Assembly (NCBI GenBank): GCA_031459385.1
Contig: JAVKIP010000014.1
Location: forward strand, 13,717 to 77,716
Length of the DNA: 64,000 bases
Direction: 5' to 3'
Source: Candidatus Fervidifonticultor secundus
Lineage (GTDB): Bacteria; Sysuimicrobiota; Sysuimicrobiia; Sysuimicrobiales; Humicultoraceae
In this document: piece after piece, positions 4,113 to 28,956 of the stretch
How the letters are laid out: each line of letters opens with the position of its first letter
How positions within the stretch are numbered: the stretch's first letter is position 1
Position numbers and translations under genes: made by a program
The notes under the pieces: model-generated
Database searches by the model: none
Told to the model about the DNA's origin: nothing
Seen by the model: only the letters and a program-made list of their open reading frames with translations

Positions 4113-4466
4113 CTACGCGCCCACGAACCCCTCGACGGGCACCAGGCGCTTCGCGACAGGATCGACTGCCAGGAACAGGCTCTCCAGGGCCACGGCACCC
4201 AGCAGCGGAGGACCACCGGGCGCCACGAAGCAGGGCGTGGTGACTTCCTGCCCGTTCAGTGCCAGCCGGACCTCCGCCACCGGCCACACCTCCCGCCGCC
4301 CGCCGGCCACGACCACCGGCTGCTGCCGGGTGGGGCGCAGGCCCAGTCGGTCTGCCAGGTCGCGTGGGACGACCAGCAGGGTGGCGCCGGTATCCACCAG
4401 CAGGTCCGCGTCTTCGGCGACGCCCGTCGGCCCGGTGAGGCGCGCGGTGACGCGAAAGAGTCCCAT
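4113..4466 (-). CDS. Clan AA (retropepsin-like) aspartic protease
   Basis: LVDTGAT catalytic motif and C-terminal LLGAVALESL. Confidence 0.88.
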   Translation of the reverse strand: MGLFRVTARLTGPTGVAEDADLLVDTGATLLVVPRDLADRLGLRPTRQQPVVVAGGRREVWPVAEVRLALNGQEVTTPCFVAPGGPPLLGAVALESLFLAVDPVAKRLVPVEGFVGA

Positions 4467-4472
4467 ATTTTT

Positions 4473-4481
4473 ATAATAGCA
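4473..4481 (-). promoter_or_regulatory. Extended -10 (TG-C-TATTAT) 6 nt before the ATG; probably a leaderless promoter
   Basis: Minus strand reads TGCTATTATAAAAATATG, with no Shine-Dalgarno. Confidence 0.7.
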
Positions 4482-4538
4482 TCCCGCAACGGCCGCTGAG
4501 CGAGGGCGCTACCAGGGCCTCCAGGATCGCCTCGGGGG

Positions 4539-5513
4539 TCACGCCCGACCTGCGGCCGCAGGCAGCAGGCGTCGGAGCATGATGACCAGGACCAGGATCA
4601 CGCCCCACAGGGCATTGGCCAGGTGGGCGCTGAACCCCATGAGGTTGAAGCCGGTGGCGACCACCTGCAGAATCGCCACCGCCACCACCAGCCCGGTCAC
4701 CGTGCCCGCACCGCCCGAGGGGTCCACGCCGCCGAGCACGGCGATGAGGACCGTCAGCAGCAGGAACGACGATCCGTAGTCGGCCTGAGCGGCGTTGAAT
4801 CGGGCGATGAGCAGCAGACCGGCCACGCCGGCCAGGAAGCCCGAGGCGAGGTACGTGCGGAAGAGCATCGCCGCCACGTCGATGCCGGAGAAACGGGTGG
4901 CCGTGGGATTGGACCCCAGCAGGTACGCCACCACGCCGAACGGGGTGCGGGTCAGCGTCACTGCCAGAACCGCCGCCCCGGTGGCGAAGAGCAGGAAGGG
5001 TACCGGGATCCCCAGCAACGAGCCGCCGCCAAGGAAGAGGAAGGGTTCGGGGAAACCGGCTAGCACCGCCCCGCGCGTGACGGCCAGAGCGAAGCCTTTG
5101 ACGAAGATCATAGACGCCAGCGTGGTGATGATGGGGGGGACCTCCAGGTACGCCACGATGCCGCCGTTGACGGCCCCCACGGCGAGCGCGGCGGCCAGCC
5201 CCAGGACCACGGCCACGGGCGTCGCATGCCAGAAGGCCCCCTGCTTGAGCACGTAGGCGGCCGCGATGCCGGCGAGGTTGGCGGTGGAGATGATGGAGAG
5301 GTCGATGCCGCCGGTGAGCATGGGCAGCAGCTGCGCCAGCGTCAGCATGCCCAGCAGCGGCATCTGGACCGCCATGGATGCCAGGCTGTCCAGCGTCAGG
5401 AGCCGCCCGTCGGTGACGGCTGCCAGGAACACGGTCACCACCGCCAGCACCAGGCCCAGGATGGCCAGCTCGCCGTAGCGGGCCGTCCAGGATGCCGGCG
5501 GGCTACGCCACAT
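4539..5513 (-). CDS. Monosaccharide ABC transporter permease (CUT2/RbsC-like)
   Basis: GGIDLS, IITTLAS, GSNPTATRFSGI, VLGGVDPSGGAG. Confidence 0.92.
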   Translation of the reverse strand: MWRSPPASWTARYGELAILGLVLAVVTVFLAAVTDGRLLTLDSLASMAVQMPLLGMLTLAQLLPMLTGGIDLSIISTANLAGIAAAYVLKQGAFWHATPVAVVLGLAAALAVGAVNGGIVAYLEVPPIITTLASMIFVKGFALAVTRGAVLAGFPEPFLFLGGGSLLGIPVPFLLFATGAAVLAVTLTRTPFGVVAYLLGSNPTATRFSGIDVAAMLFRTYLASGFLAGVAGLLLIARFNAAQADYGSSFLLLTVLIAVLGGVDPSGGAGTVTGLVVAVAILQVVATGFNLMGFSAHLANALWGVILVLVIMLRRLLPAAAGRA

Positions 5514-21838: not shown

Positions 21839-21901
21839 GGATGCGCCTCCAGGGCAACAGATTGCTCCTGTTTCAGCGTAGCGAGGGCGCGCCCGCGCTC
21901 C

Positions 21902-21976
21902 ATCGGGCAGGAGCCCGATTTTCCCCGGCGCCGGGACCACGGCGCGCGCCCGGCGTGGATCGGCTCGGCACCCGAT
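21902..21976. promoter_or_regulatory. Two regulon boxes in the divergent malic enzyme-TCS / usp promoter
   Basis: ATCGGG-caggag-CCCGAT 21902-21919 (minus -10 TACGCT, 21 nt); ATCGGC-tcggca-CCCGAT 21959-21976 (-10 TATCGT, 22 nt). Confidence 0.85.
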
Positions 21977-22041
21977 GGCCGACCGCGCCCGTCCAGCCTA
22001 TCGTCAAGATGGGTGGATGCACAAAGGATGGGGTGAGACCC

Positions 22042-22554
22042 ATGATGAAGCTGCAGCGCATTCTCGTGGGCACGGATATGTCAGAGGTCTCGCCGGCGCT
22101 GTATACGCTGGCGCAGACGCTGGCCCGCCAGTCCGGTGCGCATCTCGTCGTGGCGTATATCGCCGACCCCGAGGAGTACGACGAGATCCGCCGGGAACGG
22201 CCCATGGGCATCGACGAATTCGTTGATCGCTTCCGCACCAGCATCCTGGCGGACTTCGAGGACGCCACCGGCGGCCGCAAGCAGCCCGTCCAGGTCGAGG
22301 TGCGCATGCGGCAGCGGGGCGTGGCCGAGGATCTGCTGCAGGTCGCAGCCGACGTGCAGGCCGATCTGATCGTCGTCGGCACGCACGGCCGCACCGGCCT
22401 GCGGCGCGTCCTGCTGGGCAGCGTTGCCGAAGCGGTGGTGCGCCACGCCACCATGCCGGTGCTGGTGGTGCCGCAGGCGGCGGCGGTGCAGGCCGCGGTG
22501 CCCGCGGCGACGACCGCCGTGCCGGCGGGGACGGCGGGGAACCAGGGAGGCTAG
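22042..22554 (+). CDS. Universal stress protein
   Basis: RILVGTD, ADLIVVGTHGRTG, LLGSVAEAVVRHA. Confidence 0.93.
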   Translation: MMKLQRILVGTDMSEVSPALYTLAQTLARQSGAHLVVAYIADPEEYDEIRRERPMGIDEFVDRFRTSILADFEDATGGRKQPVQVEVRMRQRGVAEDLLQVAADVQADLIVVGTHGRTGLRRVLLGSVAEAVVRHATMPVLVVPQAAAVQAAVPAATTAVPAGTAGNQGG

Positions 22555-24200: not shown

Positions 24201-24360
24201 CAGAGGCCCTCCTTCCGGTCGGCGCGCGTACCGGCGCCCTGTCGTGCGTGCGACGACTGCCCTCCGCCGCGCTCCGACGTCGGCTGGCCGGGCCCGCGCC
24301 GACTGGTGCGCCGTCAGGACCGCGTCGCGTTCAGGGTACGGAGCGCCCGCCCGTGGCGCC

Positions 24361-24378
24361 ATCGGGCGCGAGCCCGAT
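24361..24378. promoter_or_regulatory. Perfect regulon box centred between two divergent -10 elements
   Basis: ATCGGG-cgcgag-CCCGAT; TACCCT (minus, 24338-24333) and CATGCT (plus, 24401-24406) each 22 nt away. Confidence 0.85.
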
Positions 24379-25014: not shown

Positions 25015-25989
25015 ATGCATCTCGCGCTGCTCGGCGACGTGATGCTCGGGCGGCTCGTCAACGAGGCGCTGGCCAGGGTGCCGCCCGACTACCCGTGGGG
25101 CGATGTGCTGCCTGTGCTGCGGGCGGCCGATGCCGTCATCGTCAATCTCGAGTGCGTGCTGGCTGACCGGGGCCGGCCGCAGCCCGGGAAGACGTTCACC
25201 TTCCGCTCCGATGCCAGGAACGTCGCCGTGCTGGCTGCGGCCGGCGTGCGAGCGGTGTCGCTGGCGAACAACCACACGCTCGACTACGGCGAGGCGGCGC
25301 TGCTGGAGTGCCTGACGGTACTGGACCGTGCGGGCATCGCCCATGCCGGTGCCGGCCGCACCCTGGAGGAAGCCCAGGCGCCGGCCACCATCCAGGTCGG
25401 CGGCGCGACGCTGGCACTGGTGGCCTGTACCGACAACGAGCCCGGCTGGGCGGCTGCGGCCGACCGGCCCGGCGTCTTCCACGTGCCCGTCGACGATCCC
25501 GACGGCCCCGCGTTTCGCGGGCTCCTGGCGCTGGTGGCGCAGGCGCGCGCCGCGGCCGACCTCGTCGTGGTGTCTGTGCACTGGGGGCCCAACTGGGGCG
25601 TGGCCCCGCCACCCGCGCACACAGAGGCCGGCAGGCGATTGATCGAGGCCGGCGCCGGCGTCGTCTACGGGCACTCGGCTCACATCGTGCGCGGTGCCGC
25701 GTGGTGGGGCGGCGGCCTCATCCTGTACAGCTGCGGCGACTTCATCGACGACTACGCCGTGGACCCGGTGGAGCGCAACGACTGGTCGTTCGTCTTCCTC
25801 CTGGACGCGGCCGGCGGCCGCGTACGCCGCGCGCGGCTCGTGCCGACCGTGATCCGTGACTTCCAGGCGCGTATGGCTCGCCCGCCGGAGCGAGAGGCGA
25901 TCCTGGCGCGGATGCACCGGCTGTGCGCCGACCTGGGCACCGAGACGCGCCGCAGCCGGGAGGGTCTCGAGCTCCCCGCGCCAGCATGA
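25015..25989 (+). CDS. CapA/PGA_cap-family metallophosphoesterase
   Basis: GDVMLGR, NLEC, LANNHTLDYG, VHWG, GHSAH, YSCGDF. Confidence 0.9.
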   Translation: MHLALLGDVMLGRLVNEALARVPPDYPWGDVLPVLRAADAVIVNLECVLADRGRPQPGKTFTFRSDARNVAVLAAAGVRAVSLANNHTLDYGEAALLECLTVLDRAGIAHAGAGRTLEEAQAPATIQVGGATLALVACTDNEPGWAAAADRPGVFHVPVDDPDGPAFRGLLALVAQARAAADLVVVSVHWGPNWGVAPPPAHTEAGRRLIEAGAGVVYGHSAHIVRGAAWWGGGLILYSCGDFIDDYAVDPVERNDWSFVFLLDAAGGRVRRARLVPTVIRDFQARMARPPEREAILARMHRLCADLGTETRRSREGLELPAPA

Positions 25990-26007
25990 CGGCGAATACA
26001 TTCCCCG

Positions 26008-26040
26008 CCCGATGGCGTGCTCCGGCGGATGCGCTATAGT
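26008..26040 (+). promoter_or_regulatory. Promoter of the ncRNA: CCCGAT half-box plus -10 TATAGT
   Basis: CCCGAT 26008-26013, 21-nt spacer, TATAGT 26035-26040, RNA 5' stem starts 7 nt later. Confidence 0.7.
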
Positions 26041-26047
26041 ATCATCT

Positions 26048-26216
26048 AGAGGAGCGCAGATCCGGCGGCGAAGTAGCCGAGTCAAACGCTCCGTACGTGG
26101 ACGCCGAGAGTCTGCGAAGTGTTCTTCGGGGGTAACTCCGGAGAACGGCTGGCGGACGGTAGGCGCCGGCGGCGGGGGCCGAAGACGGTGAAAAGTCACC
26201 GGACGAGCGCTCCTCT
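26048..26216 (+). ncRNA. Structured ~169-nt RNA, probable 6S RNA
   Basis: 5' AGAGGAGCGC pairs with 3' GCGCTCCTCT; second helix TCCGGCGGC/GTCACCGGA; purine-rich central bubble; long apical stem capped by a GTAA tetraloop (26121-26146). Confidence 0.7.
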
Positions 26217-26299
26217 TCCGTCTCGTCCGCGTCTGTCAGCGTGTGCCCTCGGATGTCGAGCTCTCGTCGGGCGCCGGGTAGAGGGGGGAGGGCAGGGCC

Positions 26300-26968
26300 A
26301 TGGCCCAGGAGCAGATGGTCAGTATCCCGGCCGACGGTGAGGTCCTGGAGGGTGGGCTGGCCCTACCCGTGCGGAGGGCGGGTCTGGTGCTCTTCGCCCA
26401 CGGCAGCGGCAGTAGCCGGCACAGCCCCCGCAATCGGCACGTCGCTCGCGCCCTGCAGCAGGCCGGGCTGGGGACGCTGCTCTTCGACCTGCTGACCGCT
26501 GCCGAGGAGGTCGAGGACGCCCGCACTGCGCGCCTGCGCTTCGACATTCCGTTGCTGGCGCAGCGGCTGATCGCGGCCACGGCGTGGGCGCAGACCGACC
26601 CGCGGACCCGCCACCTGCCCATCGGCTATTTCGGGGCCAGCACGGGCGCGGCGGCCGCGCTGGTCGCCGCTGCCGAACGGCCCGAGGGCGTCGGCGCCAT
26701 CGTCTCCCGGGGCGGCCGGCCCGATCTGGCAGGGGCGGCGCTGGGCCGCGTCCGCGCGCCGACGTTGCTGGTGGTCGGCGGACGCGACCTGGTGGTGCTG
26801 GACCTGAACCGGCAGGCCCTGGCGGCGTTGCAGGCGCCAGCCGAGCTGGCCATCGTGCCGGGTGCCGGACACCTGTTCGAGGAACCAGGCACCCTCGATG
26901 AGGTAGCGCGACTGGCGGCCGCGTGGTTCCGCCGTCACCTGGAAGGCCTACCCCGTCAGGTCGCGTAG
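26300..26968 (+). CDS. Dienelactone-hydrolase-like alpha/beta hydrolase (Rv0571c C-domain-like)
   Basis: FAHGSGSSRHSPRN, YFGASTG, VSRGGRPDLA, GAGHLFEEPG. Confidence 0.88.
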   Translation: MAQEQMVSIPADGEVLEGGLALPVRRAGLVLFAHGSGSSRHSPRNRHVARALQQAGLGTLLFDLLTAAEEVEDARTARLRFDIPLLAQRLIAATAWAQTDPRTRHLPIGYFGASTGAAAALVAAAERPEGVGAIVSRGGRPDLAGAALGRVRAPTLLVVGGRDLVVLDLNRQALAALQAPAELAIVPGAGHLFEEPGTLDEVARLAAAWFRRHLEGLPRQVA

Positions 26969-28790: not shown

Positions 28791-28895
28791 ATCGGGCTGT
28801 CGCCTGATGGGCGACCGCGGTGTGCCCCGCCTCGGCCTCGTGGCCGAGCGGGAAATCGGGCCGCCGCCTGATGCGGATTCGGCGGCGCGGCCGAT
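28791..28895. promoter_or_regulatory. Array of four regulon boxes in the divergent REC/CBS-ACT promoter
   Basis: ATCGGG-N6-CCTGAT 28791; CTCGGC-N6-GCCGAG 28831; ATCGGG-N6-CCTGAT 28855; TTCGGC-N6-GCCGAT 28878; -10 TATGGT (minus, 22 nt) and TACACT (plus, 23 nt). Confidence 0.82.
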
Positions 28896-28956
28896 GGCGA
28901 CCGCGGGTGCTGCGGGACTACACTGCCCGCGTAGACCGAGCGAGGGGCGGTGCACC

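Follow-up and report, generated by a model that had tools for sequence, protein, structure and literature searches.

The Ms1 RNA of actinobacteria is reported to bind the core of RNA polymerase, showing that polymerase-binding RNAs exist outside the 6S family (PMC4191392, PMC9130861), and DrrS of Mycobacterium tuberculosis is reported to be a DosR-regulated small RNA (sRNA; PMC5360333). Here, we describe an RNA gene in a 64,000-nt stretch of DNA (the window) from Candidatus Fervidifonticultor secundus, a member of the phylum called CSP1-3 in record titles and Sysuimicrobiota in its published name (PMC11604079). A sequence-only reading of the window had proposed a paired-end structured RNA of about 170 nt, placed in a dormancy island behind a regulon-type promoter, and had taken it for a divergent 6S RNA or a new RNA-polymerase-binding RNA; the sequence features that it quoted are present at, or within one base of, the places it gave. 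Our analysis reveals a real, conserved, structured non-coding RNA gene of 171 nt (window positions 26048-26218, + strand), which is an extra paralog of a differently promoted main copy and is not the 6S RNA of these bacteria.

The predicted RNA is a rod-like irregular hairpin with paired ends. Specifically, the + strand of 26040-26225 folds at -94.3 kcal/mol with a z-score of -4.53, equalled by none of 200 shuffles, and the - strand has a z-score of -1.82, equalled by 10 of 200; the many G-U pairs of the alignment-based fold mark the + strand as the RNA strand. Of 41 related genomes searched at the DNA level, 33 gave matches (72-88% identity across families), and the window's own genome proved to contain a second copy. 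We aligned 31 copies (the close homologs) with MAFFT, and RNAalifold returned a rod of 46 pairs, 17 of which carry compensatory changes; 97.5% of the alignment cells pair under this rod, compared with 92.1% in shuffles and 35-54% in slid controls in which the partners were shifted by 1-3 columns. The covariance model of the family, R1, gives the window copy 156.7 bits (G000:C6:39764-39934 in genome coordinates, G000 being the window's own genome), and in an alignment of 68 copies to the model, an alignment that leans towards the model, 32 of the 46 pairs are compensatory and 95.0% of cells pair, compared with 85.7% in shuffles. Two of the 31 rows, which are also among the 68, come from unpublished genomes (L020 in G010 and L024 in G019), and no conclusion hangs on them alone. 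Because pairing exceeds both the shuffles and the slid controls and is accompanied by compensatory changes, the fold is far beyond chance, and the structured RNA with its own promoter stands as proposed. A small open reading frame was considered and rejected by inspection, since the indel lengths seen in the variable arm are not divisible by three and substitutions are compensatory.

The ends of the RNA, AGAGGAGCGC (26048-26057) and GCGCTCCTCT (26207-26216), pair with each other, and the closing stem P1 within them leads into a series of helices and internal loops (Table 1). Several diverged paralogs have Watson-Crick pairs in place of the GAAGUA/GAAAA loop, which presumably resembles a loop-E/bulged-G motif (AGUA/GAA); the A-N-UCAAAC/GAAGA loop is retained in most of the diverged paralogs too. 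Further invariant internal loops are ACGUGGAC opposite ACCGGCG and GAGAG opposite GGUAGG. The apical cap is a GUAA tetraloop of the GNRA type (26132-26135), kept as GUAA in close homologs and varied or expanded in paralogs.

The sequence-only reading had described two opposing purine-rich single strands as an open bubble. Instead, these strands hold a helix, GCCG/CGGU (P3) plus UC/GA, which is invariant in close homologs and leaves loops of at most about 6x5 and 4x4 nt in the rod. P3 is 98% paired in the 68 copies, with counts of CG:64 UA:3 UG:1 and GU:44 GC:13 AU:4. In diverged paralogs one of its pairs is compensatory (C-G to U-A, 3/68) and a G-U becomes G-C in 13/68; variants include GCUG/CAGC (L144 and L148, L numbers denoting loci) and an extension to the 6-bp GUGCCG/CGGCAC (L157, L159, L160 and L162). 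Covariation support for the GCCG/CGGU helix is limited. A proposed refolding of the 3' side into CGGTGA-AAAG-TCACCG (26186-26201) can form in the window copy, with 6 bp and -8.4 kcal/mol, the strongest of 61 copies tested, but it is not conserved: at least 5 pairs are reached in 14 of the 61 copies, and the genome's main copy forms none (0.0 kcal/mol). This potential arises because the GC-rich strands of two neighbouring helices are self-complementary.

The 6S model RF00013 has no hit in 25900-26400 at E<=10 and none in the window at gathering score, and it matches another locus of the genome, G000:C12:198426-198617 (- strand, L032), over its full length at 40.2 bits (cut-off 46.4, E 1.4e-6, fold z-score -3.96), which is probably the canonical 6S RNA of this organism. 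In 28 of the 41 relatives the 6S model scores above cut-off (53-104 bits), always away from the RNA described here. With no 6S match, a canonical 6S RNA elsewhere, an interrupted bubble and an unconserved 3' hairpin, the window RNA is not these bacteria's 6S RNA, and the divergent-6S proposal is not supported.

The same evidence bears on the idea of a second, non-canonical polymerase-binding RNA (6S-/Ms1-like), in which the conserved loops would replace the open-promoter mimic and polymerase would be sequestered in dormancy. The length of ~170 nt, the paired ends and the long irregular rod fit such an RNA, as do control by a stress regulon and the existence of paralogs, both of which are features of 6S-1/6S-2, and the precedent of Ms1 cited above. 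In addition, the searches for this RNA and for an Rfam-detectable 6S RNA both came back empty in families f5 (12 genomes) and f3 (1 genome), though several of these genomes are 94-100% complete; this is a single family-level coincidence. However, 28 of the 41 relatives, and probably the window's own genome, already have a canonical 6S RNA at another locus, RF00013 does not match, the supposed bubble holds a helix and the alternative hairpin is not conserved. Beyond rod shape and stress regulation, nothing tested favours RNA-polymerase binding; we regard this explanation as distinctly unlikely.

No other Rfam family accounts for the RNA. Rfam at gathering score gave 0 hits in the whole window, and in E-value mode the locus returned mir-1224 (E=2) and a viral element (E=5.9), both biologically implausible and rejected as chance. 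A bacterial Y RNA (the Ro partner), or another known ribonucleoprotein RNA missed by Rfam, would also have paired 5' and 3' ends, several copies and a link to stress; yet a search for TROVE/Ro (PF05731), whose gene usually lies close to that of the Y RNA, found none in the window's own genome, which is 97.6% complete, with a control search finding it in Deinococcus, no Rfam family matches, and the signal recognition particle (SRP) RNA lies elsewhere at 181.9 bits. This explanation is close to refuted, and we give it almost no credence. An L7Ae-family gene is present in the genome and says nothing either way. SRP RNA as an identity for the window RNA was rejected, matches lying elsewhere at 75.4 and 181.9 bits; the latter (G000:C9:4383-4648, - strand, L034) is of the large, Alu-domain bacterial type, a notable trait for the phylum. 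A supposed likeness to the 3' end of 16S rRNA was dropped, as the short 3'-end motif had no match in the assembly.

Model R1 finds the RNA in 74 of 94 genomes that cover the class and phylum, all of one order, with 1-8 matches per genome and tandem pairs in two genomes. By family, with the window's own genome left out, matches occur in 31/33 genomes of f1, 17/22 of f2, 23/23 of f4, 1/1 of f6, 1/1 of f7, 0/12 of f5 and 0/1 of f3; with filters off, R1 gave no real match over the nnr loci of 5 f5/f3 genomes (best 12.8 bits). An exact-pattern scan of one genome per species (~185,000 species) returned 68 loci, of which 65 match R1, all 65 titled as the candidate phylum or carrying inconsistent high-level labels. 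The other 3 (with Pseudomonadota, Clostridia and Thiohalomonadaceae titles) have no R1 match and were discarded as chance hits. The family thus seems confined, as far as searched, to one candidate phylum, where the exact pattern, being blind to diverged relatives, makes its status outside the phylum 'not found' and not 'absent'. It was previously undescribed and lies outside Rfam 15, and genome papers PMC11604079 and PMC11962464 make no mention of non-coding RNA, sRNA, 6S RNA or dormancy. An origin in a mobile element or phage was rejected: 1 of 40 paralog loci lies near an IS66 transposase, and the sole pattern hit on a viral contig has no model match.

The main copy of the window's own genome (G000:C17:17364-17534) scores 186.7 bits and folds with a z-score of -4.27. 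At 21 of 30 other loci the RNA adjoins nnr (YjeF_N + Carb_kinase) and/or glmS (two SIS domains), with acpS between the RNA and glmS on the opposite strand; the main copy itself sits between nnr and acpS. Being convergent with acpS and divergent from nnr, it therefore leads no gene. The window copy, in contrast to this differently promoted main copy, lies in a 310-nt gap, with a PGA_cap-family gene upstream and an alpha/beta hydrolase gene downstream. The order PGA_cap, RNA (and hydrolase) is common to two other species of the genus (L002 and L003, with RNA followed by hydrolase in L003), and PGA_cap followed by the RNA also occurs in a different genus of the same family (L142).

The surroundings of the window copy are of a stress or dormancy type, bearing out the island that had been proposed. 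In particular, the cluster comprises a malic enzyme-HisKA_3 kinase-LuxR-type response regulator operon, formate-tetrahydrofolate ligase, CBS and CBS+BON proteins, Usp proteins, an E1-E2 ATPase and a DeoC aldolase. We examined the neighbours of 40 further paralog loci and found the same kinds of gene recurring beside the diverged, box-driven paralogs of families f4, f2 and f1 (Table 1), so that the placement of paralogs in stress islands is conserved and old. High-scoring f4 copies, some of them tandem, have an M20 peptidase or DUF1844 gene on one side and a DUF255 gene on the other. The tandem RNA genes are at 2001-2174 and 2309-2482 of L170 (G067:C21) and at 2001-2173 and 2336-2509 of L171 (G068:C33); each has its own DnaA-box-like/SOS-box-like promoter, and they are flanked by a DUF1844 or M20-peptidase gene and a DUF255 gene.

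A further explanation, for the window copy alone, is that it forms a structured 5' leader on the hydrolase mRNA and serves as a module for stabilising or processing that transcript instead of existing as a free RNA. The hydrolase gene begins 81 nt downstream on the same strand, has no regulon box of its own in the box pattern searches and is separated from the RNA by no T-run, so it may be co-transcribed with the RNA; other paralogs stand directly before formate-tetrahydrofolate ligase, CBS or Usp genes. In another family, the box-driven paralogs of L137 (2001-2167) and L176 (2001-2171) lie immediately 5' of a formate-tetrahydrofolate ligase gene on the same strand, and co-transcription there is possible; the window's own ligase gene lies 1.7 kb from the RNA, on the other strand and behind its own box. 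Against a leader, convergent neighbours are found at the main copy and at many paralogs, and the closing stem persists as part of the element, followed in many genomes by a T-run. A cis-regulatory leader or riboswitch would keep a constant same-strand place before related genes, and the downstream genes of the paralogs proved mutually unrelated or convergent. A hydrolase leader is, in our estimate, highly improbable.

The promoter of the window copy resembles those of its island neighbours. The sequence-only reading had placed CCCGAT 21 nt before a TATAGT -10 hexamer, and both are as described; CCCGAT proves to be the right half of a bipartite, 23-nt operator motif that the three species of the genus share and that has no second occurrence in the window (Table 1). 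The same bipartite box stands at the same distance before 21 of the 68 family copies, and a TAnnnT hexamer lies 9-16 nt before the first base of the RNA in 49 of the 68, with a TG one base upstream in 28 of these. A simple sigma-70 scan found no -35/-10 pair at the window RNA promoter, which fits an activator-dependent promoter. The pattern CCGATRG-N16-21-TANNNT occurs 5 times in the window, where 0.17 is expected and 0 of 100 shuffles reach 5, and the five sites precede the malic-enzyme/kinase/regulator operon, the Usp gene, the formate-tetrahydrofolate ligase gene, the RNA and the CBS gene. In the best of these sites the left half completes a palindrome, ATCGGG-N6-CCCGAT.

Genome-wide, the box-plus-(-10) geometry gives 17 sites compared with 7 for a backwards control, and the regulon-type promoter is thereby upheld. 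The sites precede genes for GNAT-CBS-Usp, Nramp, cupredoxin, hemerythrin-CBS and CBS proteins, a GAF-HisKA_3 kinase and an enoyl-CoA hydratase. The window RNA thus shares its operator and -10 spacing with the stress-regulon genes of the island; the box before the kinase/regulator operon suggests autoregulation, and the regulator would most simply be the island's own LuxR-type response regulator. At L190 (G000:C14:44370-44390 and downstream), a one-mismatch box and an TGGTAATTC -10 stand before hypA and the NiFe-hydrogenase small subunit, and the regulon may include hydrogen metabolism. Shorter marks were discarded as uninformative, namely CCCGAT alone (34 times on the + strand) and the 12-mer CGCCCGATGGCG with at most 2 mismatches (57 compared with 50 expected). 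An exact match to the bipartite box inside 23S rRNA (L184, G000:C20:18856-18876) is due to chance and marks the pattern alone as unspecific.

The 68 copies fall into two promoter classes, with 21 in class A, 41 in class B and 6 unclassed; two more are class A by eye, and L165 and L168, left out of the classification, have class B-type upstream motifs by eye. Class A, to which the window copy belongs, has AAT(A/C)(C/G)-N8-10-CCGAT(G/A)G ending 17-21 nt before the -10. Class B, to which the main copies belong, has a TTGAC-type -35, an extended -10 and GAAC-N4-nTT(C/G) just upstream, with at least one upstream CCACA box in 37/41 and at least two in 32/41 (typical form TTGCCCACA-CTATCCACA). The main copy of the window's own genome accordingly has a TTGAC -35, DnaA-box-like repeats and an SOS-box-like GAAC-N4-GTT element. 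In this genome canonical CGAACATNTGTTCG boxes stand directly before two imuA'-imuB (RecA-like + IMS polymerase) cassettes, and, because such boxes precede these cassettes and ruvC, GAAC-N4-GTTC behaves as the organism's SOS box. These SOS-box loci are L194 and L195 (G000:C20 and C35), L197 (C2) and L198 (C7), and GAAC-N4-GTTC is found before dnaB as well as ruvC. The densest T(A/G)TCCACA clusters of the assembly (G000:C1:1988-2208 and 4369-4663) flank dnaA (C1:3494-3976), so we take them as DnaA-type boxes, and the region around dnaA is likely the replication origin. From these likenesses, LexA and DnaA would be expected to bind the class B RNA promoter.

Table 1. Features of the window in window coordinates, and paralog loci with their recurring neighbours
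Feature	Position or loci	Strand	Remark
Regulon-type operator AATAC-N9-CCGATGG	25995-26017	+	ends 17 nt upstream of the -10; right half, CCCGAT at 26008-26013
-10 hexamer TATAGT	26035-26040	+	first base of the RNA 7 nt downstream
Closing stem P1, 5' strand	26050-26057	+	partner 26207-26214; 5/8 pairs compensatory, 97.9% of cells pair (68 copies)
Internal loop GAAGUA	26070-26075	+	opposite GAAAA (26190-26194); invariant or nearly so in 31 close homologs
P3 helix GCCG	26076-26079	+	partner CGGU (26186-26189); in the middle of the supposed bubble
Core internal loop A-N-UCAAAC	26080-26087	+	opposite GAAGA (26181-26185); most widely kept sequence element of the family
Apical hairpin GTTCTTCGGGG-GTAA-CTCCGGAGAAC	26121-26146	+	6/8 pairs compensatory, 98.7% of cells pair (68 copies)
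Closing stem P1, 3' strand, and CUUC tail	26207-26218	+	predicted 3' end
Back-to-back boxes with -10 elements	21875-22004	21906-21875 (-); 21972-22004 (+)	before malic enzyme/histidine kinase/response regulator operon; before Usp gene (22009-22551)
Regulon box and -10	24333-24365	-	before formate-tetrahydrofolate ligase gene
Regulon box and -10	28891-28924	+	before CBS-domain gene
PGA_cap-family gene	25015-25989	+	upstream of the RNA; Pfam
Alpha/beta (dienelactone-type) hydrolase gene	26300-26968	+	Pfam
Usp beside diverged box-driven paralogs	L137, L162, L166		families f4, f2, f1
Formate-tetrahydrofolate ligase directly downstream of paralog	L137, L176		
HisKA_3 kinases divergent from paralog RNA	L147, L151, L152, L158, L163		GAF domain scored in L151, L152
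E1-E2 ATPase beside paralogs	L147, L153		
DeoC beside paralogs	L143, L146, L153		
CBS or CBS+BON beside paralogs	L146, L169		
HSP20 beside paralogs	L148, L159		
LonB-like protease beside paralogs	L144, L148		
PFK beside paralogs	L159, L160, L166		
PGA_cap beside paralogs	L142, L165, L168		

The helices covary, and the invariant positions are concentrated in internal loops; on this ground the RNA may contact a protein, conserved loops with covarying stems being the pattern of protein- or ligand-contacting RNAs. We propose that it acts in trans as a scaffold or decoy for a protein, which would be contacted through the invariant purine-rich internal loops, with the helices merely covarying, and that paralogs behind different promoters would allow one and the same RNA to be produced in response to different stresses. 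Specifically, the window copy would be made under a hypoxia- or energy-limitation-type regulon and the main copy by replication or DNA-damage status. We give this proposal an even chance of being right. Another explanation is a base-pairing regulatory sRNA, which would repress or activate mRNAs through a conserved segment. Multi-copy, partly tandem genes with stress promoters are typical of that class, and tandem copies occur in L170 and L171, but the conserved segments here lie inside internal loops of a stable rod, with neither an exposed 5' end nor a hairpin loop to display them; the sole hairpin loop, the GNRA-type cap, differs from paralog to paralog; and 171 nt with 46 pairs would be unusually structured for a seed-type sRNA. 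We find base pairing with mRNAs a decidedly doubtful explanation.

Several observations weigh against the trans-acting, stress-regulated reading. The ends of the RNA are predictions. A T-run directly follows the closing stem in lower-GC relatives (36/68 copies have at least 5 T in the next 12 nt), but the window copy has just 3 T in those 12 nt and no T-run, so its 3' end is tentative. Genome-wide, the strict bipartite box with one mismatch allowed gives 10 hits compared with 8 in the control, which is no enrichment, and the regulon consequently rests on the right half, the -10 geometry and the kind of downstream genes. The response regulator, LexA and DnaA are assigned by motif resemblance, and protein binding is read from the conservation pattern; no partner candidate consistently co-occurs with the RNA or is encoded nearby. 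Furthermore, roughly every second box-driven paralog is followed directly by a gene on the same strand (the hydrolase in the window, formate-tetrahydrofolate ligase in L137 and L176, CBS in L146 and Usp in L166), and some copies may work as, or be cut from, 5' leaders. As to the 3' end, in one metatranscriptome of the same study, with contigs at 80% likeness, a 1044-nt contig (depth 26) holds the RNA copy of a relative and stops 2 nt past ...CCCCUCUUC, the predicted RNA 3' end; this is no more than a hint, because an assembled contig is no proof of where a transcript ends and DNA may be present in the library.

A bolder version of the protein-binding proposal would make the family a phylum-wide riboregulator that links DNA replication or damage status to hypoxic dormancy: the rod would mimic a nucleic acid and, by way of its invariant loops, sequester a protein with global DNA- or RNA-binding activity, RNA polymerase for example. 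Signals would reach the main copy by its DnaA-box-like and SOS-box-like promoter, and the regulon box would govern the paralogs. We consider this version unlikely; if true, 6S and Ms1 would be joined by a third class of such RNAs. CSP1-3 bacteria are widespread and have no pure culture, and an RNA of 171 nt that is strongly conserved and present in 1-8 copies per genome is likely to matter as a cellular component; its two interchangeable promoter types offer testable ideas on how non-growing states are entered and left. The work also yields a covariance model for annotation and, as a by-product, an operator motif of a DosR-like regulon outside Actinobacteria.

6S RNA binds the RNA polymerase holoenzyme, mimics an open promoter with a large open central bubble, and templates short product RNAs, a synthesis coupled to a conserved 3' hairpin rearrangement. 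The CSP1-3 RNA resembles it in length (~150-200 nt for 6S, 171 here), in having paired ends and its own promoter, in folding into a long irregular hairpin and in its link to non-growth, but it has neither that bubble nor that rearrangement, and the family model does not match it. Sequence conservation in its loops is much stronger than is usual for 6S. Ms1 has about 300 nt. Unlike the CSP1-3 RNA, it is actinobacterial, and no homology between the two was detected, in that no Rfam family matches the CSP1-3 RNA, the presence of an Ms1 model in the Rfam copy used being unconfirmed. Ms1 is likewise reported to be a lineage-restricted, 6S-like structured sRNA tied to stationary phase (PMC4191392, PMC9130861). 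DrrS is unrelated in sequence and lineage. In the CSP1-3 case the copy under regulon control is one paralog of an RNA that occurs phylum-wide under different regulation, and its operator is unlike the DosR box. What is shared with DrrS, as reported, is the place of an sRNA gene in a hypoxia/dormancy two-component regulon beside Usp-type genes (PMC5360333).

Orphan lineage-specific RNAs, such as the raiA motif and other 'orphan' Rfam motifs, were likewise recognised from conservation and covariation, in one lineage, with invariant loops and covarying stems. The CSP1-3 RNA differs from them in lying outside Rfam 15 and in its two promoter classes and recurring placement in stress-gene clusters, which together give testable regulatory hypotheses. 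The family is new, and its general kind, that of stable, rod-shaped bacterial sRNAs with paralogs under stress control, is familiar.

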